A DNA stretch of 62,743 bases from an uncultured Verrucomicrobiales bacterium (GTDB taxonomy: Bacteria; Pseudomonadota; Alphaproteobacteria; Paracaedibacterales; CAIOTO01), in assembly GCA_964478775.1 (NCBI GenBank), contig CAYZJC010000005.1:8848-71590 (forward strand), in the 5' to 3' direction. The position numbers and the translations under genes are program-made. Below the pieces are notes generated by a model. It did not search any database. It was not told the origin of the DNA and saw only the letters and a list, made by a program, of their open reading frames with translations. Of this stretch, positions 9,033-52,952 are shown in pieces. Every line of letters begins with the position of its first letter. Position 1 is the stretch's first letter.

Positions 9033-12000
9033 ATGAAAAAAGTTACCGCTCACTCTATTGCGCTTGCAATTTTACTTACCTCTTCAACCCTTGTTAATAT
9101 TGCCGTTTCTGCAGTTCTTTCATCTCCTGCAGCTCCTGGCGGTGATGGACCATCTGTGATTCCTTCTTCCTCACCACAAGCTGCTGCCCCTGCAACGTCA
9201 GTGGCTCCTGTGGCGGCAACTCCAGCAGCTACTCCAGCAGCTACTCCAGAAAATAAAGAAGAAGCTAAAAAAGAAGCATCTGGTGGGCTTAATATTTCTG
9301 TATGTCAATTAAAAGAGTCAGGCATGTTAGGCAGAGCATTAGGGGAAGGTTACGGTAAAGACTGTGTAACGCAAGCTAGAAAAGACGCTCTCCTTAATGC
9401 CATAAACAACATGGATGATGAAAACACACGCGAAGAAGTTAGAAAACTATTTGCAGTCAAACCATGGTATCGTGTCTTCTTACCAGCGCCATTTTCAATG
9501 GATGATTATAGTCAAATAGCTAATGTATTTAAAGTGGCAAGCGCACAACCACTCATTCAAGGTCTGCAAGGTATTAAAGCCGCTGCTGATTCATATAAAC
9601 AGTCAGCGAATGTTTCTGACCATAACACCAATGCTGCAAATGCAGAGGCCAATAAAACCGCTGATGATGTTAATACCCGCCTTAAAACAGCAGAACACAT
9701 TCTTGAAAACGAAGAAAAACCAGTATTAAACTTTACTAAAACTGATGTAGGTAGTGCACTTCACTATTTAAAATTATTTTTCATGAACAAAACTTTGTCT
9801 GAGAAATCTATTTTTGATGAGAGTTTAGGTTCAAAAGCCCACATAGAAGACTTTTTAAAGAACTACAATAAAGAGAGTGATGAAGCATCTTATAAAAAGA
9901 ATTTAAAATATGCATATATACAAACAACGTATGATGCTTATAATGCTGCATGGAAAAAAGTCGTGTTAACTGCGGCTACATTGTCTTTATATTCATCACA
10001 ATTAAAAGATTTAGAAACTGCCCTTACAGACTTAGACGAAGACGTGATTGATGAAATTATTGAAAAAGTCAATGGCATTGAGTTGATTAAGAAAGATATA
10101 GGTAAAATTGAGCCACGTCGTTTTGCAGAAATCATTTCTAAAATCAATGACGAGCTTTCCTTTGATAAGGGTAAGTATCACAACAGAATTATATATATAG
10201 ATGATAGAGAAGTCACAACAGAACCTGAACAAAAGAGAATTTTAATTAAAATTAAACAAGAGACTTTTGAATACGTTAACAAAAATATAAATAGTCAAGA
10301 AATTAAAGACATTCAAGAGCAAATTGAAGAAGTTGTTTCAAAGGTTGGGGAATTGCATCCACGTTATAGAAAAGGGCGCGTTCACCACGTCAAACTGAGT
10401 GCACAATTATTAGATGCTATTATCACGACAGATAAAGCACAAGTGAACCAGGCGTCAGAAAATAATATTTTAGAAAATGAACCGCTAAAAGAAAAAGTTT
10501 CAAACCGTAAACTTGACAATTTGCAGGCTAACATTAAGGCAGTTCTTGCTTTTGCAAAAGAATGTGCGCACCTTGACGTGAAACCTATGTGGTTACCCAG
10601 TATTGTGTCTGCAATGCTTGACCACGATGTGGATGCAAGCCAAATAGAAAAAACAAAGCATGCGGAATTTATTACCCTGCTTGCAAACAAGTTAAGCAAT
10701 ATGCGCGTGCCAGCAGAAAATAACGCTGCAAATAAAAAATCACCATTAGTCCATGGCCAAAAGGATGCAAAAAAAGTGATGGACGCAATTGTTCAACATG
10801 AATCATTCAAGGCTGAACCTTATATATTGCTTGAACTTGTCAATGGTGCCATAGACATAAAAGACCTTCTTCCTGCTGATGTAATAGACAATGATGATGA
10901 AGTCAAAGCAACTGCAGAAAAGCCAGTGTCTGAGCTTGACAAAGTTATTGAGATTATCAATAAAACAAGCAAAGACAACATTAGACCAGCCCTTAACAAA
11001 ATTTTAGAAATTAAATATGCCGAACAACAAGGAAAAGCATGGGCTAAAACAAAAAGAATCGCCGCAAAGTTTTGGAGATGGTTAAAGCGCGATAAAGGCA
11101 TGGTAACCTGGATGCAAAAAAACCACGGTATTGTTGATGGTATGAATAATAGGGCTGCAGCTGTCTACCCCGCTATGAAAGAAGGAATGAATGCTGCCGC
11201 AATTAAATTTAATGAACTTAAACAAAAACGTCAGGCTAATGCACAAGCAAGTGCTGTAGGGGCAGATGATGAAGGCAGTGCAGTTGAGATGAGTTCTCCA
11301 AAGGTTGCGCACACACAACAAGCGGGAGTGGCTCAGCAGGATGAGCAAGAGCTGTCGCTAGCGCAAAAAAAGCAAGTCTTAGAAGATTTACTGAACAGTA
11401 ACGCAAACAGGAATGAAGGCCCACAGCAACCTCAAAATCAACCTGAAGTGGTTGTAGCAAGTGGACCCAGTGTATCTTCACCCACACGTTCTGCTTTATC
11501 TGATGCGGTTCTCAATCAAATTAAAACGCGCCAAGCTATTCACAATGCCAGCATTGAATCTTTAGAGAATCACGTAGCTGACAATCAACCACAAAATAGT
11601 GCTGAACATCCAAGAGGCACAATAGATAATAATGTCCTAGAGGAACTGAAAGCTAAGGCTCAAAAAGATCGATCAGATAAAATACAAAAGCTTGAAGAAA
11701 AAAGGCTCAAACAACAAGCATCATCAAATGTTAATCCACAAGCAAAAGAATTGGCTGCTAACGCAAAAGAATTGGAAGAAAAAAGGCAGAAAAAGCTTAA
11801 AGAAGCGGAAGTATTAGAAAGTCTCCAACGCCAATTAGCACAACTTCAACAGGCACAAAATAGCCAAGTAGATAGTGTAGGTGGTGACCGTCTACCCTCA
11901 CAAGCAGAGTTGGTAACTCAAATCAGTGAACTTGAGAAGCAGCAACTTAATGCCAGAGTGTTAAATGATCTAAGACCAAAAGATGAAAAAGAAGCTGTTA

Positions 12001-12458
12001 AACCGTCCGCTAATATACAAGAAATATACAATAATCCGGAAGTTAAAAAAGACGTGTTAGAAATGACCAATAGGATCAGTAGCATCAAAGAAAGCGATGC
12101 AAGCTGGAAGGAACGTGAAAAAAGGAACGCGGAAATAAAAAAGCTAAAAGAAAACTCAGAGCAAGTGTCACCCCAACTTCAAGACCAACAACAGGAGGCC
12201 CCATCAGTAAATCAAGCTAATCAAATAGCTGCAACCACAGCCGATAACAATTTGGTAAGCAACCAACAAGAGGCTGTAAATGACCAACAGACTATGCCAC
12301 AAGTTTCAGAGATGGAAAAAAAACGCCAAGAGGCAGAGAAGAATCAACTAGAAGCCCAAATTCAAGCCCTAGAACCAACTGACCAAGCATCAACCCAACC
12401 CAACCTTCCACAAGATCCCCACCTTCCAACAGGCAACACACCAATTAACAGTCAGTAA
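9033..12458 (+). CDS. Very large (1141 aa) secreted hypothetical protein: helical N-terminal two-thirds and a Q/E/K-rich coiled-coil C-terminal third
   Basis: The SD AGGAAG precedes the ATG. The signal-like N-terminus is MKKVTAHSIALAILLTSSTLVNIAVSA. An Ala/Pro/Thr linker follows (ATPAATPAATPE). The C-terminus contains long E/K/Q heptad-like stretches. No family recognised. Confidence 0.6.
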   Translation: MKKVTAHSIALAILLTSSTLVNIAVSAVLSSPAAPGGDGPSVIPSSSPQAAAPATSVAPVAATPAATPAATPENKEEAKKEASGGLNISVCQLKESGMLGRALGEGYGKDCVTQARKDALLNAINNMDDENTREEVRKLFAVKPWYRVFLPAPFSMDDYSQIANVFKVASAQPLIQGLQGIKAAADSYKQSANVSDHNTNAANAEANKTADDVNTRLKTAEHILENEEKPVLNFTKTDVGSALHYLKLFFMNKTLSEKSIFDESLGSKAHIEDFLKNYNKESDEASYKKNLKYAYIQTTYDAYNAAWKKVVLTAATLSLYSSQLKDLETALTDLDEDVIDEIIEKVNGIELIKKDIGKIEPRRFAEIISKINDELSFDKGKYHNRIIYIDDREVTTEPEQKRILIKIKQETFEYVNKNINSQEIKDIQEQIEEVVSKVGELHPRYRKGRVHHVKLSAQLLDAIITTDKAQVNQASENNILENEPLKEKVSNRKLDNLQANIKAVLAFAKECAHLDVKPMWLPSIVSAMLDHDVDASQIEKTKHAEFITLLANKLSNMRVPAENNAANKKSPLVHGQKDAKKVMDAIVQHESFKAEPYILLELVNGAIDIKDLLPADVIDNDDEVKATAEKPVSELDKVIEIINKTSKDNIRPALNKILEIKYAEQQGKAWAKTKRIAAKFWRWLKRDKGMVTWMQKNHGIVDGMNNRAAAVYPAMKEGMNAAAIKFNELKQKRQANAQASAVGADDEGSAVEMSSPKVAHTQQAGVAQQDEQELSLAQKKQVLEDLLNSNANRNEGPQQPQNQPEVVVASGPSVSSPTRSALSDAVLNQIKTRQAIHNASIESLENHVADNQPQNSAEHPRGTIDNNVLEELKAKAQKDRSDKIQKLEEKRLKQQASSNVNPQAKELAANAKELEEKRQKKLKEAEVLESLQRQLAQLQQAQNSQVDSVGGDRLPSQAELVTQISELEKQQLNARVLNDLRPKDEKEAVKPSANIQEIYNNPEVKKDVLEMTNRISSIKESDASWKEREKRNAEIKKLKENSEQVSPQLQDQQQEAPSVNQANQIAATTADNNLVSNQQEAVNDQQTMPQVSEMEKKRQEAEKNQLEAQIQALEPTDQASTQPNLPQDPHLPTGNTPINSQ

Positions 12459-16922: not shown

Positions 16923-17774
16923 ATGGTGAATAACTTTTTAGGTTTTATTTTTTTGGTACGTGTATTTTTATTTTTGCTATCTGTTTTTTTATTAACGGAA
17001 AGCTTTGCCCCAAATGTGTGTCTTGCATCACCCAATAAAACACGCAAAAGCTTTCTTAGCAGGCAAGAAAAATGGGTTGACTGCAGTTTGAAATTTTGCA
17101 GTATCGAACATATTCAACAAGGTCTAGATAGTGGCTTTAGTATTAATGCGAAAAGTAAATGCGGTACGACCTTGCTGATGAGCGCAATTTGTTGCAATAA
17201 TACTGAAGTTGCAGATTTTATATTAAATAAAGGGGCAGATTTTACCCTCGTTGACTTGGAAGGAAGCACCACCCTTCATTGGTGTGCCTTATTTGGCTGT
17301 CTAGAAATTTCAAAGCGTTTACTCGCTATGGGTGCGAACCCAAATCAATCAACCCCGTTAGGAACAACACCCTTAATGCAAACCGTAATTTACAACAAGC
17401 CACATCTCACCAGACAGTTACTTGCGCAACCAGGAATTGATGTAAACGCCTATAATGTGTGTGCAAGCACAGCACTTAGTCAAGCCGTTGCATACAATCA
17501 TATTGAAATAGTAGCGTTGTTATTAGAACATCCAGGTACGCACTATTACCTAACAGACAATCAGCACACGGCAGTTCATGAGTATGCGAAGACTGCTGAA
17601 ATGAAAGGTATATTAAGGCTTCATCGACTTAAACCCTTTTTAGCGTTTTTAAAGGTGTCACAAATTCAAACCCCTTACACGCAAGTGATACTTGGAGAAG
17701 AGATTAAGCTAATGCACACAACAACAATTTTAGAAAACCCAGACCTTACACGTTATGTATGTGGCTTTCTATGA
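16923..17774 (+). CDS. Ankyrin-repeat protein with N-terminal signal-like sequence (ANK-1)
   Basis: The hydrophobic N-terminus is FLGFIFLVRVFLFLLSVFLLTESFA. There are 4-5 ANK repeats (GTTLLMSAICCNNTEVADFILNKGAD, GSTTLHWCALFGCLEISKRLLAMGANPN, GTTPLMQTVIYNK..., STALSQAVAYNHIEIVALLLEHPG). The C-terminal tail is ...KPFLAFLKVSQIQTP...ENPDLTRYVCGFL. Confidence 0.85.
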   Translation: MVNNFLGFIFLVRVFLFLLSVFLLTESFAPNVCLASPNKTRKSFLSRQEKWVDCSLKFCSIEHIQQGLDSGFSINAKSKCGTTLLMSAICCNNTEVADFILNKGADFTLVDLEGSTTLHWCALFGCLEISKRLLAMGANPNQSTPLGTTPLMQTVIYNKPHLTRQLLAQPGIDVNAYNVCASTALSQAVAYNHIEIVALLLEHPGTHYYLTDNQHTAVHEYAKTAEMKGILRLHRLKPFLAFLKVSQIQTPYTQVILGEEIKLMHTTTILENPDLTRYVCGFL

Positions 17775-17807: not shown

Positions 17808-18641
17808 ATGAATTTTATACGGCTCAAAAGTCTTGCACTACAAGCTCTTTTAATATTACTTGTAAGTTGCCTATATACTGGTGCAGGTCATGCTATGATA
17901 CGACTTGCACTGCAATCCGCTTATTTTGAAAGAACTTGGATTGATCAACACTTTGAGTCATGTAGTATTGAGTCAGCGAAGAAATATATAGATAATGGCA
18001 ATTGCATTAATTTGCAAAGTCCAGCTGGCACAACATTCTTAATGCAGGCAATTATTCATCATCAAATTGAAACTGTTGATTTTATTTTAGATAATGAACC
18101 AGATGTTAATCTTGCCAACAAGATTGGTGGTACAGCTTTGCATTATGCAGCGCAAGCAGGCCTTGAAGAAGTTGCACAAAGACTATTGCAGATGGGGGCA
18201 AACCCTAATGCGAAAAGCTGGATGGGGTGGACCCCTTTAATGTCTGCAGAAACGTATGAGCAAATTAATGTCCTTCGACAATTGCTAATGCACCCACAAG
18301 TGGATGTCAACGCTCAAGACTGTAGTGGCTATACAGCTCTAATGTATGCTGCGTTAAGCAATAAATGTGAGATTGCTGCAATACTACTTAACCACCCGTC
18401 AATTGATATTCATATTGTGGATGATTTAGCGTGTATGGTCGACCTCAGTATTCTTACACCTGAAATGAGGGGGGAATTTCGGTTTCACACCTTAAGTCCC
18501 TTTTTAAAATTTTTACAAAGTTCACAAATTCAAACGCCGACAACGTCCATGATGCCTGCGCAAGTAGAAAGAATCCCTCATGTGATAAAAGCTCTAGAAA
18601 ACCGAGACCTCACACGTTTTTTGTGTGAATTTATTGGCTAG
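17808..18641 (+). CDS. Ankyrin-repeat protein with N-terminal signal-like sequence (ANK-2; tandem paralogue of ANK-1)
   Basis: The SD AGGA precedes the ATG. The N-terminus is LKSLALQALLILLVSCLYTGAGHA. ANK repeats include GTTFLMQAIIHHQIETVDFILDNEPD and GGTALHYAAQAGLEEVAQRLLQMGANPN. It is colinear with ANK-1 throughout (about 40-45% identity by eye). The tail is ...SPFLKFLQSSQIQTP...ENRDLTRFLCEFIG. Confidence 0.85.
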   Translation: MNFIRLKSLALQALLILLVSCLYTGAGHAMIRLALQSAYFERTWIDQHFESCSIESAKKYIDNGNCINLQSPAGTTFLMQAIIHHQIETVDFILDNEPDVNLANKIGGTALHYAAQAGLEEVAQRLLQMGANPNAKSWMGWTPLMSAETYEQINVLRQLLMHPQVDVNAQDCSGYTALMYAALSNKCEIAAILLNHPSIDIHIVDDLACMVDLSILTPEMRGEFRFHTLSPFLKFLQSSQIQTPTTSMMPAQVERIPHVIKALENRDLTRFLCEFIG

Positions 18642-38918: not shown

Positions 38919-39746
38919 ATGTTTATCTTAAATAAGAATGTATTTATTAATGTGTGTTTTTTGTGTTGCATCTGCGTCACTGAAACGATCGCAGAGCCGT
39001 CGCCCCAATTGGTAGAACAAGAAAGGTTAGATACAGCCCTTGTTGTTGCGCTTCATTATTCTGACCAATATGGTGCCATTGAATTATTAGACGCTGGTGC
39101 CAATCCAAATGTTGCTGACAAATCAAACAAATCAGCTTTGTGTATTGCCCTTGTTAAAAAACTAGAAGATGCAGCCATTTTGTTAATTGAAAAAGGGGCT
39201 GACTTAAATGTATGCAGTTGGAATGGGACACCTGCTTTATGGCTGTCTCTGCGGTTTGGCACCCCAAAGGTGGCCCTTTCCATGATTGAACATGGTGCTG
39301 ATCCGAATGCTGTTTATATGTCTGATTCCATATTGTACACCAGCATTCTGCACCAGTGGCCACGTGTGGCGATATCTTTGTTGGAAGCAGGTGCGAACCC
39401 CAATATTGGTGAAGACCCACTTTATATGCATTCTCCTCTTATGATAGCAGGACTATTCCAACAACATGAAGTCATCAAAAAATTAATTGATTGCGGGGCT
39501 AACTTAAATGCCACAACGGCACAGGGCCTTACATTATGGGACATCGTTGATGAACACACAGCAAAATTTATTGTGCGTTATCGTCAAAAGGCAGCGACTA
39601 TGCCCTTTTTAATGGCGCTTCATGGGTCAGGCTACCAAGGGCCACGTAGCTTGACGCCAGATCCAAGCCCACCTCACACAGTTGAAAGCAAAGATGCTGT
39701 GTTGTACTGTAAGGAATTAGTTCGCTACATAGCAAAGTACCTGTGA
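38919..39746 (+). CDS. Ankyrin-repeat protein with N-terminal signal-like sequence (ANK-3)
   Basis: The SD GAGTGAGGA precedes the ATG. The N-terminus is VFINVCFLCCICVTETIA|EPS. ANK repeats include SALCIALVKKLEDAAILLIEKGADLN, GTPALWLSLRFGTPKVALSMIEHGADPN and SPLMIAGLFQQHEVIKKLIDCGANLN. The tail is ...MPFLMALHG...KELVRYIAKYL. Confidence 0.85.
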   Translation: MFILNKNVFINVCFLCCICVTETIAEPSPQLVEQERLDTALVVALHYSDQYGAIELLDAGANPNVADKSNKSALCIALVKKLEDAAILLIEKGADLNVCSWNGTPALWLSLRFGTPKVALSMIEHGADPNAVYMSDSILYTSILHQWPRVAISLLEAGANPNIGEDPLYMHSPLMIAGLFQQHEVIKKLIDCGANLNATTAQGLTLWDIVDEHTAKFIVRYRQKAATMPFLMALHGSGYQGPRSLTPDPSPPHTVESKDAVLYCKELVRYIAKYL

Positions 39747-41098: not shown

Positions 41099-41133
41099 CC
41101 ACCCTTGAGCCATGCCTTAAGGGTGGTTTTTTT
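41099..41133 (+). terminator. Rho-independent terminator after ald (family CCACCCTT...AAGGGTGG + T-run)
   Basis: ccacccttgag / ccatgc / cttaagggtgg forms an 11-bp stem followed by T7. It begins 31 nt after the ald stop. Confidence 0.75.
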
Positions 41134-41209: not shown

Positions 41210-41325
41210 TGCACCTATAATGAATTGACATCCACTATGTAATATATATAATTTTTTAACTAAATTTTATGTTTTCCCCTTTAGGATTACAAAGGTATTC
41301 AAACAATTTTTGAGAGTGTATCGAA

Positions 41326-42897
41326 ATGAAAAAAATCCATTTAAATTTAACAAGATTAGCACTTGGCACGACATCTTACCTAATTGGGTGTGTGTGCCAT
41401 GCTGCTGCAATCTCAGCTACTATTCAGGTAGAGGATAATATAGTGGCCACACAAATTGAAGGAACCCTTTGTGTTGCTCAAGATAAGGCATTACATAAAA
41501 CAGGTAATGGGACGTTCTTTTTAAGTGGTGACCATAGTGGTGCAGGAAAGTTAGAAGGTGACTTTTATGCGGATGAAGGTATAGTTGCATTTGACCATGC
41601 TGGCTCACTTGGTGCTGGTGTGATCATGGCAAGTGGTACTTCCTTACAAGCTTTGGCTGATGATGTTGCATTAGCAGGTGACATTAGCCTAGCAGATGGT
41701 GCATCCATAGTAATAGATGCCAATGACCACCCTTCTGAATTTGTAGGAGAAATTAAACAAATGGGAATTAATCCTGTAACTATTGTGTTTGAAAATAGTG
41801 GCACGCAAATGACTGACCTTAAATTGCATAGCGATTATACAGCTGCTGATGCAAATGCAGATACCATGATTATTAGTGGTAAGGTGAATATCAGCATTGA
41901 CGGTAATAGCAATGCGAGTTCAGCTATGACGGTTGGGCAATTTCGTGCACTCAATGGAAGCTTAATGTTTAGGTCAGGCTTTGGAGTTTACGGGGGATTT
42001 ATAGTTGGGAATTTTGCTGCACCCTTCACAGACACGACTTACGATAATGAAATTGTTTATCAGGCTGACGAATACCAGGTGTTTTATATAAATTATGAAG
42101 AAAAAAATTATAATGTTAATCTTATGTATAGAGAGCAAGATAAACTGTCAAATTACACGCCCGAGGAAATTTTTTATGACGGTGTTACGATGGCTAATGG
42201 ATTTAGATTATCTTCAGCCAATATTACTTATGATACGTTAGCAGATTTAACAGATATTGATACGACGCAAGGTCTTTATAGCTTCTCCAATGATGGTAAT
42301 CGTAAGCTTTGGCTAACGAGTGGCAATAATACACGTCAAGAAGCTTATGATAGCAATAATACGCGTCTTACAATAGCTTATTTTAGTGGAAATATTTATA
42401 TTCCACAAGGTGGTAGTATTCAAAATGGATTTTACAGTGTTCAAAATACTGTCGAGGCAATGAATCATAACCCTACCTCTGTTGATGATAGTTTAATTTA
42501 TAGTCTAAGTGGTTTGAGTTCTAACTCTATTCTTTACTTAAATTCAGACCTTCCAGCATCTATTAAACGTGTTGAGATGTATCAGCCAAGACACAGGAAT
42601 GTTGTATACATGAGCTCAGCAGGTTTAGGTGCTGGCTTCTATATAGCCCCAACTGGCGACTTTAACATTGAGATAGATTTGTTGCCTGAATATGAATCTG
42701 TTTCTTATTATAGTGATGCAGATGATATTAATGGTTTATTGTATCCACTCCCTCGGTATAAAAGTACAATTCAAGTTCAAGGAGGAGAGGGAGTAAAAAA
42801 GCGTTTAGCGATGAACGTTGATATGTTAGATGGTTCAAAGCTTTCTATTACAGATAATGCTGAACTGCCTCACTTGAATATCAAATCAGTCGTATAA
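41326..42897 (+). CDS. Secreted hypothetical protein (523 aa): beta-helix/autotransporter-passenger-like N-terminal half and a Tyr/Asn/Ser-rich C-terminal half
   Basis: The signal-like N-terminus is MKKIHLNLTRLALGTTSYLIGCVCHA|AAI. Segments such as KTGNGTFFLSGDHSGAGKLEGDFYADEGIVAF and ALAGDISLADGASIVIDAN are passenger-like. It ends ...LPHLNIKSVV. No family recognised with confidence. Confidence 0.45.
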   Translation: MKKIHLNLTRLALGTTSYLIGCVCHAAAISATIQVEDNIVATQIEGTLCVAQDKALHKTGNGTFFLSGDHSGAGKLEGDFYADEGIVAFDHAGSLGAGVIMASGTSLQALADDVALAGDISLADGASIVIDANDHPSEFVGEIKQMGINPVTIVFENSGTQMTDLKLHSDYTAADANADTMIISGKVNISIDGNSNASSAMTVGQFRALNGSLMFRSGFGVYGGFIVGNFAAPFTDTTYDNEIVYQADEYQVFYINYEEKNYNVNLMYREQDKLSNYTPEEIFYDGVTMANGFRLSSANITYDTLADLTDIDTTQGLYSFSNDGNRKLWLTSGNNTRQEAYDSNNTRLTIAYFSGNIYIPQGGSIQNGFYSVQNTVEAMNHNPTSVDDSLIYSLSGLSSNSILYLNSDLPASIKRVEMYQPRHRNVVYMSSAGLGAGFYIAPTGDFNIEIDLLPEYESVSYYSDADDINGLLYPLPRYKSTIQVQGGEGVKKRLAMNVDMLDGSKLSITDNAELPHLNIKSVV

Positions 42898-42920
42898 CAT
42901 TCTCATAAGGTTTATCATGA

Positions 42921-42952
42921 CCACCTTTAGTTTATCTTAAGGGTGGTTTTTT
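42921..42952 (+). terminator. Rho-independent terminator (same hairpin family)
   Basis: ccaccttta...taagggtgg stem (one G-U pair) followed by T6. It begins 24 nt after the stop of the 523-aa gene. Confidence 0.7.
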
Positions 42953-43077
42953 AAATGGTTTATTCTTTTTTAATTTGCACCCTTGAAATTTCATAAAAAA
43001 GCCTTAACTAATATAATATGTAAAATTATAGCATATTTATCAATGTTGAATTTAATAACAAAGAATAGGAAAATTGT

Positions 43078-44217
43078 ATGAGATTAAAAAGAAATGTTCT
43101 TGCATTGGCTGTTTTATTAACAAGCTTTATTGCAGATAATGGCTTTGCCGTAAATAATCACAACCAAATTGTCAGACCAAATCAATGGTTTGAGGCAGCA
43201 GTGTCTGGTGACACGGACACAATGAAAAGGGCTATTTCACAAAGGTTTGATATTAATATGCGTCACCAGAAGCTTGATCAAACTGCTTTATCTATGGCCA
43301 TTGCAGAAAATAAGGTTGAGGTAGTGAAACTATTGCTCAATCATAATGCGAGTTTAGTGGAGCTGGACTCAGCTAACCTTACTGCTTTCAGTAGATTCAT
43401 GAAGTATTCACCTAACTGCTCTGAAATTGCAAGCCTCTTGTGTGCAAAAGGTGCAGATCTGGCAGAGCTTAATATGATTAGTCCTTATCGCAGAACACGT
43501 TTGTATGACATGCTTAGTTATTCTAAAGAACACACAAAAACATTAGATATATTACTATCACAAGAAAATAGCAAAATAATAAATCTTGATGAAAAAGATA
43601 TATTGGAGCTTTCTTTGCTGCATAGGGCAGCATTGTCTGGACACCATAACATTGTAAAGCTACTCATTGAACGTGGCGCAAATGTAATGACAAAATCAAA
43701 AACAGGTGAGACACTTTTATTTTTCACGACAAATATTTCAAATCAAAACGAGAAGCAGCACGATTATCATGGTTTGATTATTAACAATGATAATCGAGCA
43801 GAAAAAGTTTCACACTTGCATGAAATCATAAATGCTTATATTGATAATGGTGTTGACATTAATCACCAAAACCAGTGGGGCTTCACTGCTGCAATGTGGG
43901 CAATGGCTTACTGTAAAACTGCCTCAAAATCTAATAACCTGGCCACTGTTAAAGGCTGGTATAACATTGCATGGTACTTAATTAAACACCCGAAGTTTAA
44001 TGTCTGGCTTCAAGACAACAAGCATAGAACAATCTTAGAATACGCCTCCATTTCTGTTGTGATGAGAAAAGAAATTCTTTGGAAAATGTTAATCATCAAT
44101 GAAGGAAGTGCTTTACAGCAACAGCACACAACTGCACCGTCACAAAAGCGCACAACAGCACAGTATGAAGTTTTTAAAAATTCTCCATTGGTTCGTAAGA
44201 TCGTTGATTTTTTATAA
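43078..44217 (+). CDS. Ankyrin-repeat protein with N-terminal signal-like sequence (ANK-4)
   Basis: The SD AGGAAA precedes the ATG. The N-terminus is MRLKRNVLALAVLLTSFIADNGFA|VNN. ANK repeats include QTALSMAIAENKVEVVKLLLNHNASL, LSLLHRAALSGHHNIVKLLIERGANV and FTAAMWAMAY. The tail ends ...NSPLVRKIVDFL. Confidence 0.8.
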   Translation: MRLKRNVLALAVLLTSFIADNGFAVNNHNQIVRPNQWFEAAVSGDTDTMKRAISQRFDINMRHQKLDQTALSMAIAENKVEVVKLLLNHNASLVELDSANLTAFSRFMKYSPNCSEIASLLCAKGADLAELNMISPYRRTRLYDMLSYSKEHTKTLDILLSQENSKIINLDEKDILELSLLHRAALSGHHNIVKLLIERGANVMTKSKTGETLLFFTTNISNQNEKQHDYHGLIINNDNRAEKVSHLHEIINAYIDNGVDINHQNQWGFTAAMWAMAYCKTASKSNNLATVKGWYNIAWYLIKHPKFNVWLQDNKHRTILEYASISVVMRKEILWKMLIINEGSALQQQHTTAPSQKRTTAQYEVFKNSPLVRKIVDFL

Positions 44218-44311
44218 AAGTCATTAACGTTGCTTTTAACGTGACTAGCCTTATGATTGTCACACATTAGCAGTAAATTAATTCCTACTATTACTATAAT
44301 TGCAAGTGTCA

Positions 44312-44347
44312 CCACCCTTAGCTTTGTCTTAAGGGTGGTTTTATTTT
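44312..44347 (+). terminator. Rho-independent terminator (same hairpin family) between convergent genes
   Basis: ccaccctta / gctttgtct / taagggtgg followed by ttttatttt. It lies 95 nt after the ANK-4 stop and 15 nt beyond the stop of the minus-strand gene 44362..45306. Confidence 0.65.
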
Positions 44348-44361
44348 ATGATAATGACCAC

Positions 44362-45306
44362 CTAAAAGTCAAAAAATGAGGTATCAGGTCTAAAATGAAC
44401 ATGTATATGTTGAAAAGAATACATATCTTCTGGCCACTCAATGTGAAAACTTGACGTCATCTGAAAATCTGAAATTACGTTATCAGTAAATATCTCACCC
44501 ATAATGACACCAGGTTCCTGGTTAATAGTGACATCAGGTTTCTGAATCCTCACAATAGGAAGTGGCTTTACAAAAAGTGTTGTGTAAGGGTTAGCGGCAA
44601 AATATGTTCTAAGCGCATTTTTTATATCGTGATTTAAATACTCTTGAGGGGTTATCATCACACAGTGTGGGGGTTCGTTATGTGTCCAACTAGCAAGCTT
44701 TGAAAACTCACAAACGCAAGTAGGTATTTCTGCGTCAATTTTTGCTGCTACTTGTTCAAAATTACTTTCACTTGCTATTGTAAAATGGCTAAGAAAATAG
44801 GCCTGCCTTTCACGACTTGAATCAATAAAGTCTTTTAAATATTTAAGTCTTGGTTCGTTTCGTATTAAACGTAACAGACTTGGAAAAAACGGGTCATCTT
44901 CACTGATGATCTTCACATCGTTCAACTGAAGGATATCTTGAACCGTCATTATAGTCGGCTTTATTCCCTGTTTTTCCATAGGTAGGAACATCATTTTAGA
45001 GGATAGAATAACTGGTTTATTATTTAAATTCACTTTTAAATAATAATAAATATTTCCGGTTCCCTGATGATTGTACTTTGCTTTCCAAAGGATGTCTAGA
45101 AATCCTATATTTGAGTGAAATGCATGTATATTGGATACTAAACCATCAGAACAATTATCAGAACTATCAACTGCTTCAAGCGTTGAAATGGGTTTATTTA
45201 ATGCTACTGGGTTATCAATTGATAAATCCGCATCTACAGCATAAGAAAAATGGGTTAATAGCAATAACGAGGCTATAAAGCTTTGTTTGAAAAAATTGTC
45301 TTTCAT
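44362..45306 (-). CDS. Secreted hypothetical protein (314 aa) immediately downstream of the 1509-aa gene
   Basis: The ATG at 45306 is preceded by AAGGAG with a 5-nt spacer. The signal is MKDNFFKQSFIASLLLLTHFSYA|VDA. It ends ...HFRPDTSFFDF. No family recognised. Confidence 0.5.
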   Translation of the reverse strand: MKDNFFKQSFIASLLLLTHFSYAVDADLSIDNPVALNKPISTLEAVDSSDNCSDGLVSNIHAFHSNIGFLDILWKAKYNHQGTGNIYYYLKVNLNNKPVILSSKMMFLPMEKQGIKPTIMTVQDILQLNDVKIISEDDPFFPSLLRLIRNEPRLKYLKDFIDSSRERQAYFLSHFTIASESNFEQVAAKIDAEIPTCVCEFSKLASWTHNEPPHCVMITPQEYLNHDIKNALRTYFAANPYTTLFVKPLPIVRIQKPDVTINQEPGVIMGEIFTDNVISDFQMTSSFHIEWPEDMYSFQHIHVHFRPDTSFFDF

Positions 45307-45402
45307 AAAAACTCCTTTTGGTATGAACATGACACTATTAAAAACAAAGACCCTAAAACTGTCGTAGCTTTAAGGTCTGTGTCAATTAATTTTAATTAAA
45401 TT

Positions 45403-48400
45403 TTAAACAACTAACAAGCTTTTCAATGCGCCATTTGCCATGTCCATTGGGTCTTGGAAGATTGGTGTGATGTCAGTGTTATTGTAGGTGAGAACATAAG
45501 ACGTGTTTTCATCTGCGCAAACAATTTTTAAGTTGCTGTTAATTTGGTTGAGTTGTAATTCAAATGCCCCACCTGATAAAATAATTGTTCCAGCGAAGTT
45601 GCTTACATCACCTAACGCAATTGAACGTATTTCTTCCAGGTCTGTCAAAGTTGTATTAAACTGAATGACACCTTCACCGCTAAGGGTTCCAGCAAGGTTC
45701 GTGTCAGTCAATACTTTTGCCATTACGTTTGCATTTGTGGGCACAACCAAGTTTGCATTTAATACTGTACCATCAAACCTAAAGTTTGAAATGATAGCAC
45801 CTTGATCATCAGCCTCAAAAGTAACTGTTGTATTGCTTGTGAGCAAACCATCACCTTTTATATAAAGACCGCTTCCTTGCACAATTGTAATGTCAGTGGA
45901 AGCTAGGGCATGTGTAATTGCAAGTGTATTGCTTGTAGTTACAACATGTTCAGGGGTTACGTTCGCCAATACTCTGATAGGATTATCAAAGTCATAGGTT
46001 TTAGCAAGTTCAATTAAATTGTGACCGTAAGCCCCGTGAATATTTAATTGCGCATTTGGACTGAGGCCAAAGTCGCCAGAAATCATTAAAGCTTCAGTTG
46101 CGTTATTGTCTTCACTTAGAAGATCAAGGTCAGCATTTAATGCCACTGCGTCATATCCATCCGCTTGCAAAGCAGCAGCTGTGATTGTCACGTTTCCTTG
46201 TCCATTTGTAATACCTATGCTTAATGTTTTTTGGCGGGTTAAGATTTCACCATCATTACAGCGCAAACTATTGTTTTCTGTAAAGGCTTGATCTTTTCCA
46301 ATGGTTAATTTGGTTTTCTCACCCTCTAACAAGACACTGACATTAGATGTACCAGCGTAATCTAATGTAGCGGATATATTCTTATTAATAGTTAGCAAAC
46401 TTGCATTGACGGGGCCATTGAAAACGGCTTCTCCTCCAAGTGTGGTTGTAAGGATTACATCTTGTTCTGTTGCATCTACAAGTTTAGAGAAAGTATTGCT
46501 TCCTGTAAGGTCAAGATTAATGCCAGCAGCTGTTGCATCTATTGTTGCATTGACTGTTGAGTCGTTGATCAACATGTCAGCTTTTTCCTTTGCTGTAATG
46601 GTGGGGTTCTCAACATTTTCAGCAAATAAGAATGTAGCTGAGCTTACAAACTTAACCTCTTTTTTCTTCAATACAAGTGCTGATGCTGAAAAGCTTTTTG
46701 TTGCAGTTACTGTTCCGGAAGTCTCTTCTTCACCAATAGTGAGTGTGCCGCTAAATGTAGTGTCTTTTTTGAGTGTGACAGTAGAATTTTGAGTAGGAAT
46801 AATGTTTACATGGGTTCCACTAATATCACCATTGATTTCCGTATCCATTTCACAAATCAAATTTAGTGTTGTAGGCTCGCCAATTTTTGCACTAAGGGTT
46901 CCATTTATATTTGTAATAATTGCCTCTCTCTTGGGAACAATAATTTTAACGGCATCATTATATTCAATGACTGGGAACACAATTACGTCATCAAATAGTT
47001 TATCGCACCCTACATGGAACTTTAGGCCACTGTCAATATACACATAAGAAGTGTTAAGGGTGTTTTTTAATAATGTTGATGCATAAACATGCAATTCTTT
47101 TGAAGTAATGATGCCTTGCATTTCAAAATAGTAAGCTGGGTTTGTATCAACAACAGCATATTGTCGAAGTTTTAATACTGTATCAACTGGGGTTGTAATA
47201 TTACCGGCAAACAATGTGGACTCGACAAGTGTGTCAAGATATGAAATTCCTTCATCTCCTAATGCTGTGAAAATGAGTTCTGGAATCGTTACAGATAGCT
47301 GATTCACCCCTATGGTGCTTCCTACAGGCACTGAAATAACCGCATTTCCTGATATAAAAGGGGTTACACTAAAGATAGTTGCCCCAGTTGAATTTGTACG
47401 CGTCAAATTTTCAGATTCTAGGGCGAATGATTTGTTGATTGTCACTGTTCCACCATTGTCAATGTAGGTAGAGCCTGTATGTTCTAGTGTTGAACCGTTT
47501 GTAAATGTGAGAGCTGTTTCATTATCTAAGAATTTAATTTTAAAATCATAATCACCAGAAATAGTACCGCTGTATTCACAATTTTGCTTAATTGTAAGCT
47601 CAGCAGTGCTATTGCCAATAGCAATCTTAGTGCTTGAAGAAGCTAGGTCTAAAATGAGTTTTGCACCGTCACCAATTTCGAGTTGTGAAATTTTAGGGAA
47701 GTTTGCAGTGCCTGCAAGCGTTAATTGAGACCCAGTGTCCACTTCAATGGAAGATGTCTGCATGGTATTTCCAATAGTGACAAGTGCATTTTTAAATTCA
47801 GTTGGCCCGGTGTAGGTTTGTTCACCGCTAATGGTGATGTTTTTCATTTCTTGCGCTGTGTTTTCAAAAGTAACTTTCGCATTTGTGTTTGTATTTTTAT
47901 CATCCATGAGAAAAATAGCACCTGTGTATTCAAAATCACTATCGCTCTGCAGTATAAAGTCGTCACCAATTGTTATGTTATTAGAAAGAGAAGGCATCCC
48001 TGTGGTTGCAATCGTGACTGTACTTAAGGTAAAGAGGTTCACGCCACTCACTTGATCTTGGTCATTAATCGTCATGGTTCCCGCCCCAATACTTACCATA
48101 TTAGGAAGTGAAATCCCATCTTGCAAGACGAAATTAGACTGTAATAAATAGAGTTCATCAATACCACTAAATGCACTGCTGAGATTGATTGTAGAAGCCT
48201 GTATGTTTCCCGGTAACATCCAGAACTTTTGACTAGCTTCGCTTCCATTAGCCTTTATAACATTAATTGCTCCAGAAAAAGTCGTGTTTGCATTAAATAA
48301 TAGCATCGTTATACCCTTAGCAGAGGTATATGTTAAAGGGTTATCAATGGTGTAGTTTGCACCTTTGACGATTAAGTATGCATCTTCATCGAAATTAATA

Positions 48401-49932
48401 CTTTTTCCTGATGGTAGGGGATTATTTGTCGCAGACAGTACTAAGCCTGGGCAAGTTGCAAAGTCTGGACTTTCTTGGTCAGCAATAGATGTGCGATAAT
48501 CTTGTGAAGTTGTAACATTGATTTCATTTGCGCTTAATAGGGCATTTTCATCTAACACTAATCTTATATCGCGTGTTGTGAAAGTTTTAGTGTTTATGTT
48601 GTTTGTGTGTGTAATGGTTCTAATGGTAGAGGTATCTGAAAGAAGGGACAAGTCATTAAAGTCAACCATCATTTGGGTTGCCCAAGTACCTGTGAGTTTT
48701 GCATTAGCTGAAACATCTACTGTTAAACCGTTGGGTGCAGTTAAGCTGTTTTCCAAAATAAGACCATCATAATTTAGACCTATCTTTGTGTTGTTGAGTT
48801 TCAATGTAGCATTGGTGTTGCCAAAAGGCTTGGCACAGGAAAGCTTGAGGTAGGAAAGCCCTGTGTTGCTTGAGTCGGATATGTCAATAATGGGTTGGCT
48901 TTCAGAATCTGCAATAATTGTCTTTTGAATATCAAATTTTAGCTTATCAGACGTAATGGGGCCAGCTGCAGTATAGGTGTCTGAGTTAAAGACAACTAAT
49001 TCACCATTTGTACCTGTCATCCCAACAGAAGCGGGGTATGCAATTTTTTCATCAGCAATGCTGTTTGTGAAAGTGGCATTAGCAGAAATGGTCATACGTG
49101 GTGCCGCTGACTTTTCAATTGAATTTTCTATCAGGGTCTTATAAAGAAGATTTGGTAGTGTGCTTACTGACGCTGCAATGTCAAAAGTTGCATAATCATG
49201 TAAGCTAATTGTTGAAGAGGGGTTAAGACCTTTCGCAGTGCCAAGGCGGGCAATTGCATGCGCTAGCACTTCAATATTAGAAATTGTTGGTGCTATTTCA
49301 TGAGAGTCTTCAAATGACAAAGTTCCCTCGCTAACGACAAAAGAACCATTGTGTGTGCGGTGAAAGGCAGACTTTAAGATTGTGATCCCTGTTCCTTCAA
49401 AAATAATTTTCGCAATTTTTTCGGGTGTATATATTTCGCTTGTACGTGCATCGTCGCTTGCAATTTCTGCCCAGAGACCTGACAAGGTTAATTCACCATC
49501 GTCATTACCAATGTATTGTGTAGATGGAGACCCCTCATCACCTGCGCGAAACTTAAGTATGTTTGTGAAGGCTTCACTGCTGTTCATGTGGAATTTTGCA
49601 CCATTACCGAGAATCAAGGGATTAGTTGCCCCTAAAGATAATGGAGTGCCTAATGTCAATGTGCCTAGTACCTGTTCCCATGGTGCCGTTCTATCAGTTG
49701 AATCACCTGTAATCGTATAATCCCCTGAACATAATACAGTCGCATCGCCCGAAATGGCAGGGACTTCAAGCAGAACGTCTGTGGTGAGTGTTTGTATGAC
49801 TTCTGAGCTTGCGCTTGCATCACTGGAATAAAGAGCAGTTGTTGCGAGTAAGACTAAAGCATACTTTTTAACTTTGGAGCTGAAAAAAGAAGTTGATTTG
49901 ATTGACTGATTGTTGTTTTGGAAACGATCCAT
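45403..49932 (-). CDS. Giant (1509 aa) secreted beta-helical, autotransporter-passenger-like protein with no recognisable C-terminal translocator barrel
   Basis: The N-terminus is ...KVKKYALVLLATTALYSSDASA|SSE. The protein is T/N/S/G/I/L-rich throughout. Recurring segments resemble autotransporter-associated beta-strand repeats (GELTLSGLWAEI, ITISGEQTYTGPTEFKNALVTIGN, AGTLSGEGVIQF, FAGTIILSGGAFEL). It ends ...MANGALKSLLVV. Confidence 0.6.
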   Translation of the reverse strand: MDRFQNNNQSIKSTSFFSSKVKKYALVLLATTALYSSDASASSEVIQTLTTDVLLEVPAISGDATVLCSGDYTITGDSTDRTAPWEQVLGTLTLGTPLSLGATNPLILGNGAKFHMNSSEAFTNILKFRAGDEGSPSTQYIGNDDGELTLSGLWAEIASDDARTSEIYTPEKIAKIIFEGTGITILKSAFHRTHNGSFVVSEGTLSFEDSHEIAPTISNIEVLAHAIARLGTAKGLNPSSTISLHDYATFDIAASVSTLPNLLYKTLIENSIEKSAAPRMTISANATFTNSIADEKIAYPASVGMTGTNGELVVFNSDTYTAAGPITSDKLKFDIQKTIIADSESQPIIDISDSSNTGLSYLKLSCAKPFGNTNATLKLNNTKIGLNYDGLILENSLTAPNGLTVDVSANAKLTGTWATQMMVDFNDLSLLSDTSTIRTITHTNNINTKTFTTRDIRLVLDENALLSANEINVTTSQDYRTSIADQESPDFATCPGLVLSATNNPLPSGKSINFDEDAYLIVKGANYTIDNPLTYTSAKGITMLLFNANTTFSGAINVIKANGSEASQKFWMLPGNIQASTINLSSAFSGIDELYLLQSNFVLQDGISLPNMVSIGAGTMTINDQDQVSGVNLFTLSTVTIATTGMPSLSNNITIGDDFILQSDSDFEYTGAIFLMDDKNTNTNAKVTFENTAQEMKNITISGEQTYTGPTEFKNALVTIGNTMQTSSIEVDTGSQLTLAGTANFPKISQLEIGDGAKLILDLASSSTKIAIGNSTAELTIKQNCEYSGTISGDYDFKIKFLDNETALTFTNGSTLEHTGSTYIDNGGTVTINKSFALESENLTRTNSTGATIFSVTPFISGNAVISVPVGSTIGVNQLSVTIPELIFTALGDEGISYLDTLVESTLFAGNITTPVDTVLKLRQYAVVDTNPAYYFEMQGIITSKELHVYASTLLKNTLNTSYVYIDSGLKFHVGCDKLFDDVIVFPVIEYNDAVKIIVPKREAIITNINGTLSAKIGEPTTLNLICEMDTEINGDISGTHVNIIPTQNSTVTLKKDTTFSGTLTIGEEETSGTVTATKSFSASALVLKKKEVKFVSSATFLFAENVENPTITAKEKADMLINDSTVNATIDATAAGINLDLTGSNTFSKLVDATEQDVILTTTLGGEAVFNGPVNASLLTINKNISATLDYAGTSNVSVLLEGEKTKLTIGKDQAFTENNSLRCNDGEILTRQKTLSIGITNGQGNVTITAAALQADGYDAVALNADLDLLSEDNNATEALMISGDFGLSPNAQLNIHGAYGHNLIELAKTYDFDNPIRVLANVTPEHVVTTSNTLAITHALASTDITIVQGSGLYIKGDGLLTSNTTVTFEADDQGAIISNFRFDGTVLNANLVVPTNANVMAKVLTDTNLAGTLSGEGVIQFNTTLTDLEEIRSIALGDVSNFAGTIILSGGAFELQLNQINSNLKIVCADENTSYVLTYNNTDITPIFQDPMDMANGALKSLLVV

Positions 49933-50116: not shown

Positions 50117-50132
50117 TGGCATAAACTTTGCA
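50117..50132 (+). promoter_or_regulatory. Sigma54 (-24/-12) type promoter upstream of the flagellar operon
   Basis: TGGCATaaactTTGCA matches the consensus TGGCAC-N5-TTGCW, with the GG and GC separated by exactly 10 nt. It lies 38 nt upstream of the ATG at 50170, which has the SD AAGGTG. Confidence 0.55.
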
Positions 50133-50169: not shown

Positions 50170-50541
50170 ATGTCCTCTTTATCTTCTATATCGGGTTCTG
50201 CAATGTCCTCTTCAGCTTATGCTGTTGAAGATATGAAGTCACGCCTTTCAGATGCGAAAGAAAAAAACGCACAAAAGACAGCGCAAGAATTTAACACGAT
50301 GTTTTTAAAGTTTTTCTTAACGAAGATCATGCCTGAAATGCCAGATGGCTATTTTGGCGGGTCCACTAATGAAATATATCAAGGCTTATGGATAGACGCT
50401 TTAGCTGAAGATTTAGCAAAAAATGATCCACTCGGCCTTGAAAAGTTGGCAAGAAAGCATTTGAAATTAGAAGGGGAAGTGCCTGCTTATGCTACCCCCA
50501 CATTACAAGAAAGGGGACCTCTTCATGACATTGTCGTCTAA
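50170..50541 (+). CDS. Flagellar rod-binding protein (FlgJ N-terminal domain / CheL-like)
   Basis: 123 aa. AQEFNTMFLKFFLTKIMPEM...YQGLWIDALAEDLAKNDPLGLEKL fits the Rod_binding family pattern. It is the first gene of the flgK operon. Confidence 0.7.
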   Translation: MSSLSSISGSAMSSSAYAVEDMKSRLSDAKEKNAQKTAQEFNTMFLKFFLTKIMPEMPDGYFGGSTNEIYQGLWIDALAEDLAKNDPLGLEKLARKHLKLEGEVPAYATPTLQERGPLHDIVV

Positions 50542-51083: not shown

Positions 51084-52952
51084 ATGGCGTCAATACACAT
51101 TGGAACAAAACATCTATTAAGGTCGGCATATAGTGCCTACCAGGGGAAATTAACGCTTTCACAACAAAATGTGACCCAAAAAGATGTGGAAAACTATGTT
51201 TCTCAAGATGTGGACATGAGAAGTGCCTCCGCAGGTGGGTATACATATGGCGTAAAACTTATGACTGTGCGCCAAAAGGTGAATGAATCACTCTTTGCGA
51301 ACTTAAGACAAGCAAATAACACACTTGGTGGTTTAAAAATTGCGATGGCGTATCGAGAAAATGTAAATAAAATTTTCAGTGATAAGCAGCAACAACAGTC
51401 TTTGTCTCATCTTGCAAGAGCAGTGGCAGACTCACTTAAAACATATGCATCTCGTTCAACGGATATGGTGGCGGCCCAAAATGCTGTGGCAGATATGCAA
51501 ACATTAACAAAAAATATTCAGTCAATGAGTAACAGCATTCAGCAAGAACGTGCTAATGCCGACACAGACATTGGTGAGACTGTTAACACAATTAATTCTT
51601 TACTAGAAAAAATACGACAAGTGTCAACAGATATATCAATGCGTGCTGAATCTGCCGATGGGGCTGCTTTTCCTTTTATCAATGAACGACGAGATTTGCT
51701 TCAACAATTATCTGCCTATATTCAAATTGACGAGAGGGCTTATAGTCCTTTAGATTTAAAAAACTTTGAATTGTTTGATGTTGATGGCAATACCTTAATT
51801 CAAAATAATTTATGTTCACAACTTGTTTTTAAAAACACTTTTGCCTTTTCCACACCCACAAATGGTTATGATATTCAGTTTGTTGATATGTCTGGGGTCC
51901 AAAAGAAATATTCAATTATGAATGATGGGCGTCAAGGGGCCTTGCATGAATTGGTGAAAGCGCGCGATGTTATATTGCCACAAATGCAACAAGAACTCGA
52001 TGCGTATACAGGCACACTACGTGACACCTTCAACCAAATTCATAATGAAGGTCTCGCGCTTAAGCCAGCAACGTCATTAACAAGTTTTAAAACAGTGCCA
52101 GATGGTCATATTATTGGTGATGGGCATGGTTCCCTTAATCTTGCAGAAGATATGAAACTATCAGGTTCAGGTACGGTGCGTTTTGCTGTTATTAATCTTA
52201 ATGATGGTATTATGCAAAGCAAGTTTGACCTTGAATTGTCTGCGGATATGTCACTTGGTGATATCATCACAAGAATTAATGATGCTGACATTGGGCTTAC
52301 TGCATCACTCACACCAGATGGTAAGTTTAACATTGAATCTAACGACCCCGCATTTGGGGTGGCGATCAGTAATGCTGAAGAAGGAAAGATGCCTAAAATA
52401 TGTGCGAACGATGTCTACAATCCAACAAGAGCCTTTGGCTTTTCTCACTTTTTTGGTTTTAACAATTTGTTTGATAGTGACACCAATGTCTTAGGGGATT
52501 CCCTAGATGGCGTGTCAGAAACATTTCGTGTGCGCCCAGATATTATCAGTAATGCTAAACGTTTAGCGACAGGCCAACTGAGCTTAAAGAAAGATGTTTT
52601 TGAAAAAGTATTACATGTTGGTGACGTGTCTAATTTGGAAAAATTATCTAATGCTTTAAGTATTGGGGTGTCTTTTCAAAGAAATACATTGGTTCAAGCC
52701 CAGGTCACAACGTTAGAAGGTTACGCTAGTGGGTTTGCAAAACGTAATATAACTGAAGAGCAAAGCCTGCTCAGTGTTATACAAAAACAAAACTATGCAT
52801 TTGAAGGTTTGTCACAAGAACTGAGTGATTTAAGTGGTGTGGATGAACAATATGAATTGTCTATTTCATTAGACTTGGTGACTTCTATTAGCTATATCAC
52901 ACGTATGATGTCTTTTAATAAAGAATTAGATGATAGGGTTTTGAGTATATGA
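51084..52952 (+). CDS. flgK: Flagellar hook-associated protein 1
   Basis: 622 aa. The N-terminal rod/hook-family helix is divergent. The C-terminal ...LSDLSGVDEQYELSISLDLVTSISYITRMMSFNKELDDRVLSI matches the FlgK C-terminal pattern (SGV..DEE...L...Q.aY.A). Synteny with flgL. Confidence 0.85.
   Translation: MASIHIGTKHLLRSAYSAYQGKLTLSQQNVTQKDVENYVSQDVDMRSASAGGYTYGVKLMTVRQKVNESLFANLRQANNTLGGLKIAMAYRENVNKIFSDKQQQQSLSHLARAVADSLKTYASRSTDMVAAQNAVADMQTLTKNIQSMSNSIQQERANADTDIGETVNTINSLLEKIRQVSTDISMRAESADGAAFPFINERRDLLQQLSAYIQIDERAYSPLDLKNFELFDVDGNTLIQNNLCSQLVFKNTFAFSTPTNGYDIQFVDMSGVQKKYSIMNDGRQGALHELVKARDVILPQMQQELDAYTGTLRDTFNQIHNEGLALKPATSLTSFKTVPDGHIIGDGHGSLNLAEDMKLSGSGTVRFAVINLNDGIMQSKFDLELSADMSLGDIITRINDADIGLTASLTPDGKFNIESNDPAFGVAISNAEEGKMPKICANDVYNPTRAFGFSHFFGFNNLFDSDTNVLGDSLDGVSETFRVRPDIISNAKRLATGQLSLKKDVFEKVLHVGDVSNLEKLSNALSIGVSFQRNTLVQAQVTTLEGYASGFAKRNITEEQSLLSVIQKQNYAFEGLSQELSDLSGVDEQYELSISLDLVTSISYITRMMSFNKELDDRVLSI

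Follow-up and report, generated by a model that had tools for sequence, protein, structure and literature searches.

Very large beta-solenoid proteins that are rich in Thr, Asn and Ser and carry PATR-like motifs are, in Gram-negative bacteria, mostly exposed at the surface or secreted. The closest described counterparts of the protein examined here are type Va autotransporters, type Vb TpsA proteins, TIGR02601-repeat proteins with other C-terminal anchors, and the S-layer protein RsaA. The protein itself, referred to below as the giant, has 1509 residues and is encoded on contig CAYZJC010000005.1, of which a stretch of 62,743 nt was analysed (the window; all positions are coordinates of this whole stretch).

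45403..49932, minus strand: gene of the 1509-residue giant, an orphan (open reading frame call)

Compared with the type Va autotransporters Ag43, IcsA and Brucella BmaC, the giant has a similarly long Sec leader, a T/N/S/G-rich, apparently all-beta body and motifs resembling the PATR core, and the passengers EspP, Ag43 and IgA1 protease appear among its non-significant Foldseek neighbours. Unlike these proteins, it lacks a C-terminal barrel, a linker helix, an aromatic terminus and an ESPR, and the hidden Markov model (HMM) for PATR gives 8-13 bits against a threshold of 27 in the giant and in the 523-residue product of a nearby gene. TIGR02601-repeat proteins with other C-terminal anchors include the PEP-CTERM proteins of Verrucomicrobia and Planctomycetes; since passenger-type repeats occur there without an autotransporter barrel, the barrel-less state is not unprecedented. 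The giant differs from such proteins in having no PEP-CTERM, sorting domain or transmembrane tail, and its repeats stay below the HMM thresholds. RsaA, a large all-beta alphaproteobacterial surface protein, is the giant's top Foldseek neighbour (6p5t, E 0.067). The match is non-significant (probability 0.12, template modelling (TM) score 0.10), and RsaA leaves the cell by type I secretion and has no Sec leader, whereas the giant has one.

TpsA proteins of the type Vb pathway combine a TPS domain that bears a conserved NPNG motif with a partner, TpsB (PMC5422565). TpsB has POTRA domains and a 16-strand barrel of the Omp85 type, and its gene usually adjoins that of TpsA. Like FHA, HMW1, EtpA and ShlA/HpmA, which represent this group (PMC5422565), the giant is large, Sec-dependent by its leader, beta-rich and barrel-less, and its N-terminus is its most conserved part. 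Unlike them, it has neither a TPS domain nor NPNG, and no POTRA-bearing TpsB is encoded next to it or next to its homologue. Taken together, the giant carries a predicted Sec leader and, as far as its sequence can be tested, none of the features specific to type Va or type Vb substrates.

The giant is a real, complete, leader-bearing and beta-rich protein without a translocator barrel. Thr, Asn, Ser and Gly make up 36.5% of its residues, which bears out the richness in these residues reported by an earlier, sequence-only reading of the locus. Its leader is extended to 41 residues, with predicted cleavage near residue 41, between ...SDASA and SSE. Pfam and NCBIfam profiles run on the whole protein identified no domain of any kind, 300-residue pieces searched at E<=10 gave no match to PF03797, TIGR01414, TPS, POTRA or ESPR, and the TPS domain PF05860 had no match in residues 1-300 at E<=10. 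Sequence searches of the PDB, made with the giant alone or with a profile of the giant and its homologue, returned nothing relevant. An aromatic terminal residue is absent, the last residue being Val (...ALKSLLVV). The sequence-only reading had seen no barrel at the C-terminus and had proposed a profile check for a canonical autotransporter barrel there; that check, run with PF03797 and TIGR01414 on the whole protein and on the pieces, likewise found none.

A further check asked whether the gene is a fragment of a longer, frameshifted one, and the giant proved complete. It shares its reading frame with the downstream 314-residue open reading frame, and the two were considered as a single split gene; this interpretation was rejected because three stop codons in that frame, a hairpin and a ribosome-binding site lie between them and the second begins with a signal peptide of its own. 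An independent read-set assembly (Logan SRR12712864) contains a 3641-nt contig, L009, that is 100% identical to window positions 42083-45723. Because this contig spans the 3' end of the giant gene, the 314-residue gene, the ankyrin-repeat gene ANK-4 and the 3' end of the 523-residue gene, it supports the assembly, the giant's stop codon included. The practical value of the locus lies here: it documents a barrel-less, PATR-like giant as a complete gene, and not as an artefact of assembly or frameshift.

A full HMMER scan of 1.84e9 representative proteins with giant residues 311-1509 returned a sole relative, P0005 (E 9.7e-5). This protein of 1382 residues is collinear with the giant over its full length at 27% identity (MAFFT), and BLASTP aligns the two at E 5e-25 over giant residues 20-411 and at E 4e-19 over residues 569-1066. 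Conservation within the pair is highest in the N-terminal ~400 residues. The leader of P0005 is equally long and aligns with that of the giant, and the two C-termini lie no more than ~20 alignment columns apart, although the last ~80 residues align poorly and P0005 ends in ...DYVNLIG. Neither PF03797 nor TIGR01414 detects a barrel in it. The P0005 gene stands alone and is complete; downstream of it, on the same 6.6-kb Logan contig, come a terminator, ksgA and a methyltransferase gene. With a GC content of ~33%, against ~40% for the window, this contig belongs to a different organism. Since a complete gene in a second organism also ends without a barrel, the barrel-less state is ancestral to the family and not an artefact. 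Metagenome scans with giant/P0005 alignments revealed no further members, and the giant and P0005 are the only known members of what is a very small family. Each of the two would have an extended signal peptide, a relatively conserved N-terminal region of ~400 residues and a long, degenerate all-beta body, with PATR-like motifs as far as the C-terminus.

Between the alanine dehydrogenase gene ald and a set of flagellar genes, the giant has three neighbours:

41326..42897, plus strand: 523-residue exported orphan gene (open reading frame call)
43078..44217, plus strand: ANK-4, gene of a 379-residue ankyrin-repeat protein (open reading frame call and Ank_2 match)
44362..45309, minus strand: 314-residue exported orphan gene, with its start ATG after AAAGGAG; the open reading frame reaches 45330 (322 residues)

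The four genes are present in the sequence with the coordinates, lengths and strands first reported for them. This includes the length of 314 residues, as the 322-residue frame most likely begins at its second ATG (45309), before which the AAAGGAG ribosome-binding site lies. The flanks were also described correctly: ald on one side, recognised by its AlaDh Pfam domains (E 5e-83), and flagellar genes on the other, namely a FlgJ-like rod-binding gene, FlgK and FliW. Sec-type leaders were claimed for all four proteins, and each N-terminus indeed has the tripartite layout of basic n-region, hydrophobic core and AXA-like site; these leader calls come from our own heuristic and not from SignalP. All four proteins form singleton clusters, a PHROGs search and a plasmid tblastn search gave no match, and word-indexed homology searches with the giant, the 523-residue and the 314-residue proteins recovered only the query itself. 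For the two smaller proteins the term orphan is provisional, because the same word-indexed tool overlooked P0005.

Two-partner-like secretion would make the giant a TpsA-like protein served by a separate outer-membrane transporter, encoded elsewhere or supplied by a neighbour (the C-terminal half of the 523-residue protein, or the 314-residue protein). The giant can be likened to TpsA (PMC5422565) in its 37-42-residue leader, its conserved N-terminal ~400 residues and its long, variable, beta-rich and barrel-less body. The TpsA structures HxuA, HpmA and EtpA occur within its non-significant Foldseek list, and the 314-residue gene comes next 3' of it in the same orientation, beyond a weak hairpin, and encodes a protein that ends in Phe. 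Against this, PF05860 has no match at E<=10, NPNG/NPNL is not conserved, and neither is the NPL of the giant in P0005. Moreover, the 523- and 314-residue proteins match neither POTRA nor a ShlB-type barrel, the 314-residue protein is Gly-poor and Pro-rich, unlike a barrel, and no such neighbour exists on the P0005 contig. On balance, this explanation is distinctly unlikely.

The related proposal that the 523- or the 314-residue protein is itself a translocator gained no support, as neither matches POTRA, ShlB, Omp85 or an autotransporter barrel; the remaining neighbours and the other scanned open reading frames of the window gave no POTRA, ShlB or Omp85 match either. For the 314-residue protein, whose leader reads ...HFSYA before VDA and whose C-terminus is ...SFFDF, searches of Pfam and NCBIfam, a PDB sequence search and a word-indexed homology search found no relative and no family. 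Its composition (Gly 2.5%, Pro 6.2%) argues weakly against a membrane barrel.

Several observations point to a repetitive beta fold in the giant. A self-written regular expression for PATR-core-like motifs matches it four times (residues 544, 699, 779 and 1052) against 0.24 expected, and one of 500 shuffles reaches four. The motifs take the form ...L-x-L-x(2-5)-[YF]-[ST]-G-x-[TI]..., and alignable copies exist in P0005. The resemblance to autotransporter-associated repeats that had been reported for the giant and the 523-residue protein therefore holds at the level of motifs; it does not reach the thresholds of PF12951 or TIGR02601 (PF12951 E=4 for the giant; PF12951 E=0.11 and TIGR02601 E=0.019 for the 523-residue protein). 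From a two-sequence alignment of residues 311-1509, AlphaFold2 built a model of short beta strands and three helices of 3-5 residues (pLDDT 45), with a spacing of ~20 residues in its better parts. Foldseek found nothing significant for this model in the PDB (best E 0.067, TM ~0.1). The non-significant list consists mostly of beta-solenoids (RsaA, EspP, Ag43, IgA1 protease, tapirins, HxuA, HpmA, EtpA, tailspikes and pectate lyase); membrane barrels are absent from it. Hydrophobicity autocorrelation peaks at a lag of 21 in both the giant and P0005, with z only 2-3. The body of the giant is, on this modelling, likely a beta-solenoid with rungs of ~21 residues.

The locus had been described as built around two beta-helix proteins. 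For the giant, the all-beta model agrees with this at low confidence; kinship between the giant and the 523-residue protein, by comparison, is not detectable. Paralogy of the two was tested and rejected, as the best BLASTP value (E 0.043) and the hhalign value (E 0.13) are non-significant. What can be aligned is a collinear, non-significant resemblance between giant residues 162-254 and residues 28-132 of the 523-residue protein (E 0.04-0.13).

The reading that we favour, and to which we assign about an even chance of being correct, is that the locus holds four independent, lineage-specific, Sec-exported proteins of a symbiont-like, probably alphaproteobacterial host, and that the giant among them is probably a beta-solenoid whose outer-membrane route is encoded elsewhere. 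The 523-residue protein, the 314-residue protein and ANK-4 would then be unrelated neighbours of the giant. In mechanistic terms, the giant would be exported by Sec and cut by signal peptidase I, and would act as an adhesin-like rod of the envelope or surface. Crossing of the outer membrane, if it occurs, would rely on machinery whose genes lie in another part of the genome, be it a general pathway or a partner not linked to the locus, and would use neither the neighbouring genes nor a barrel of the giant's own. The suggested host is a deep-branching alphaproteobacterial symbiont. This assignment draws on FlgK, whose best matches in a genome contig scan are only Rhodospirillales-type metagenome-assembled genomes at 25-29% identity, with no close relative, and on two paired Band 7 genes that resemble hflK/hflC and adjoin an HtrA-type protease gene in the window.

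Several points weigh against this reading. Residues 1-310 of the giant and the 523- and 314-residue proteins were covered by word-indexed search only, which is less sensitive and missed P0005. PF12951 matches the giant at residues 180-206 with 8 bits where 27 are required; because the PATR HMM matches lie so far under threshold, the term passenger-like denotes a resemblance and not a classification. The evidence on the giant's fold (pLDDT 45, Foldseek E 0.067, z 2-3) is weak. The giant and the 314-residue gene may be co-transcribed, since the hairpin between them is weak. Finally, the giant and the 523-residue protein share a short C-terminal tail, a match expected by chance at ~1e-3 for a pre-chosen pair (a rough estimate) and for this reason not dismissed; the favoured reading leaves it unexplained.

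Both tails, reported from the start, are literally present: the giant ends in ...ALKSLLVV and the 523-residue protein in ...NIKSVV. If functional, a KS-x(0-2)-VV-COOH tail might mark barrel-less, passenger-like proteins for sorting or secretion. Alternatively, it could be a PDZ-type ligand (class I form S-V-V in the 523-residue protein, class II form L-V-V in the giant) for a bacterial PDZ protease or for PDZ proteins of the host. The pattern KS-x(0-2)-VV at the C-terminus is confined to these two among the 953 stop-to-stop segments of the window, five of which end in VV. Both bearers are predicted to be exported and have PATR-like segments, and one of the genes in the window specifies an HtrA-type protease that has two PDZ domains. 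Against a function, the pattern was drawn up only after the data had been seen. The tail is missing from P0005, the only homologue, in a region where the last ~80 residues align poorly, so its proposed role as a conserved sorting signal gains no support from the comparison. In addition, an unrelated FlgJ-like open reading frame ends in ...DIVV, and the tails show no transmembrane segment, basic cluster or match to a known sorting domain. A functional tail, be it a signal specific to this species or a PDZ-type ligand, is therefore improbable.

Equally improbable is a broader proposal, in which the giant and P0005 would represent a so far undescribed class of exoproteins, namely passenger-like beta-solenoids of intracellular bacteria that depend on Sec and reach the surface without a fused barrel or TPS domain; that low estimate is a joint one and takes in the route that the class would use, by way of the N-terminal ~400-residue module and/or the KS..VV tail, read by an unlinked or novel outer-membrane factor. 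A new export mechanism is an argument from absence only, and a new export or anchoring system coupled to an ANK effector has no positive support. If displayed at the surface, the giant would be a large passenger-type protein taken across the outer membrane by neither known type V solution (a fused barrel, or a TPS domain plus TpsB), a case that research on intracellular symbionts would do well to pursue. As the evidence stands, the pair is better regarded as one more orphan exported family with two members.

Retention in the envelope offers a simpler alternative, as the giant and the 523-residue protein could stay in the periplasm or at the inner face of the outer membrane, in a structural or stored form that needs no translocator. 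Both proteins have Sec-type leaders, yet no recognisable domain for outer-membrane targeting, anchoring or secretion, and the lipobox-like LIGC of the 523-residue protein, with no Asp at +2, fits an outer-membrane lipoprotein. The general rule given at the outset, that large T/N/S-rich PATR-like beta-solenoids of Gram-negatives are mostly surface or secreted proteins, speaks against it, and we consider retention unlikely.

The leader of the 523-residue protein contains the lipobox-like sequence L19-I20-G21-C22, with an alternative signal-peptidase I site between AAA and ISA. L19-I20-G21-C22 fits the short lipobox [LVI][ASTVI][GAS]C, with no Asp at +2, and Tyr18 breaks the longer PROSITE-type lipobox pattern. 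With this element in its leader, the protein may be a lipoprotein, and its predicted location would be the outer membrane.

Its only autotransporter-like feature is half a PATR repeat at residues 55-71, seen in sub-threshold matches to TIGR02601 (14.8 bits against 19.85, residues 55-71) and PF12951 (13 bits against a cut-off of 27, residues 56-71). These are its best sub-threshold matches, and they invite the idea that the protein is a small, divergent classical autotransporter with a leader, a PATR-like passenger of ~240 residues and, joined through a linker helix, a degenerate barrel of 12 strands. An AlphaFold2 model made without an alignment has helices at residues 271-290 and, from there to the C-terminus, many strands. 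That model is unusable at pLDDT 33 and for this reason carries no weight, and its strands have only 3-9 residues. Further against the idea, the Tyr/Asn/Ser-rich C-terminal half searched in isolation matched neither PF03797 nor TIGR01414 at E<=10, a PDB sequence search with the protein matched no solved autotransporter barrel, and the terminus (...KSVV) is not aromatic. A divergent autotransporter is thus very improbable.

The arrangement of transcription signals bears on whether the four genes belong together:

41099-41126: terminator-like hairpin after ald, of the CCACCCTTAAG hairpin family
41225..41252, plus strand: sigma-70-type promoter-like site, TTGACA-16-TATAAT (12/12), upstream of the 523-residue gene; a consensus match only
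42919..42948, plus strand: terminator-like hairpin after the 523-residue gene, of the CCACCCTTAAG hairpin family
44311..44339, plus strand: terminator-like hairpin between the convergent ANK-4 and 314-residue genes, of the CCACCCTTAAG hairpin family
45348..45378, minus strand: weak terminator-like hairpin of 13 pairs (4 G-C) in the 93-nt gap from the giant's stop to the start of the 314-residue gene

The four genes had been interpreted as one export or anchoring system. This finds no support: each of the plus-strand genes has its own terminator-like hairpin, and the 523-residue gene has the 12/12 promoter-like site, although the number of sigma-70-type sites in the region is not above that in shuffles. 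The hairpins after ald, the 523-residue gene and ANK-4 have a near-identical stem, CCACCCTTAAG ... CTTAAGGGTGG, with a T-run behind it. In the window, CTTAAGGGTGG is present in exact copy at those three sites only; with one mismatch allowed there are six, against 0.76 expected. This hairpin family could be a reused terminator cassette or the trace of a gene insertion, and the hairpin at 45348..45378 may be a partial terminator. Comparison with the second family member gives the same picture, as no homologues of the giant's neighbours lie within the 6.6 kb of the P0005 contig, which argues against these genes belonging with the giant.

The term island, applied to the interval in the sequence-only reading, is likewise not borne out. 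GC content across it is 34-41% and does not differ from that elsewhere in the window, and no mobility genes were found at 41-50 kb. Horizontal transfer, considered on compositional grounds, was set aside as unsupported by GC content. Large leader-bearing proteins at 3-2369 (minus strand, at least 789 residues) and 9033-12458 (plus strand, 1141 residues) also have no Pfam or NCBIfam match, so orphan exported proteins are a general trait of the genome and do not set the 41-50 kb interval apart. On the far side of the giant gene, a sigma-54-type promoter match, TGGCAT-N5-TTGCA, lies at 50117-50132 (plus strand). It is unique in the window, with ~0.6 expected by chance, and is located 38 nt upstream of the flgJ-like and flgK genes, in the 237-nt divergent region that they share with the giant gene.

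The ankyrin repeats of ANK-4 are clear (Ank_2, E 3.1e-24, 85.8 bits against a threshold of 27.3), and the gene is one of four paralogues, all on the plus strand and all with signal-peptide-like leaders:

16923-17774, plus strand: ankyrin-repeat paralogue
17808-18641, plus strand: ankyrin-repeat paralogue
38919-39746, plus strand: ankyrin-repeat paralogue
43078-44217, plus strand: ANK-4

These genes are dispersed over the window, the others lying beside ATP synthase genes and upstream of ald. The idea that ANK-4 is coupled to an export system gains no support, since ANK-4 is one of four dispersed, leader-bearing paralogues. All four proteins share a C-terminal tail, roughly L-[TV]-R-[YFK]-[IVL]-x-x-[FY]-[LI], seen as ...DLTRYVCGFL, ...DLTRFLCEFIG, ...ELVRYIAKYL and ...PLVRKIVDFL. 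The combination of Sec leaders with a conserved C-terminal motif is unusual among presumed host-targeted ANK effectors.

Some smaller features of the window complete the picture. The FlgJ-like protein, encoded at 50170-50541 (plus strand) and ending in the ...DIVV mentioned above, has 123 residues and consists of the rod-binding domain alone, without a muramidase domain; its open reading frame overlaps the next one by 53 nt. Within flgK, ARAGORN calls a 93-nt tRNA-Stop (anticodon tta) at 52619-52711 (plus strand), which Rfam does not confirm at its gathering score; the call is probably a false positive. Near the left end of the window, two leader-bearing open reading frames without a Pfam match lie close to each other. 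The one at 2528-3280 ends in ten lysines, and the Gly-rich one at 4759-5508 (minus strand), GGSSGGGGGNYG..., contains three 90-nt tandem repeat units at 5134-5382.

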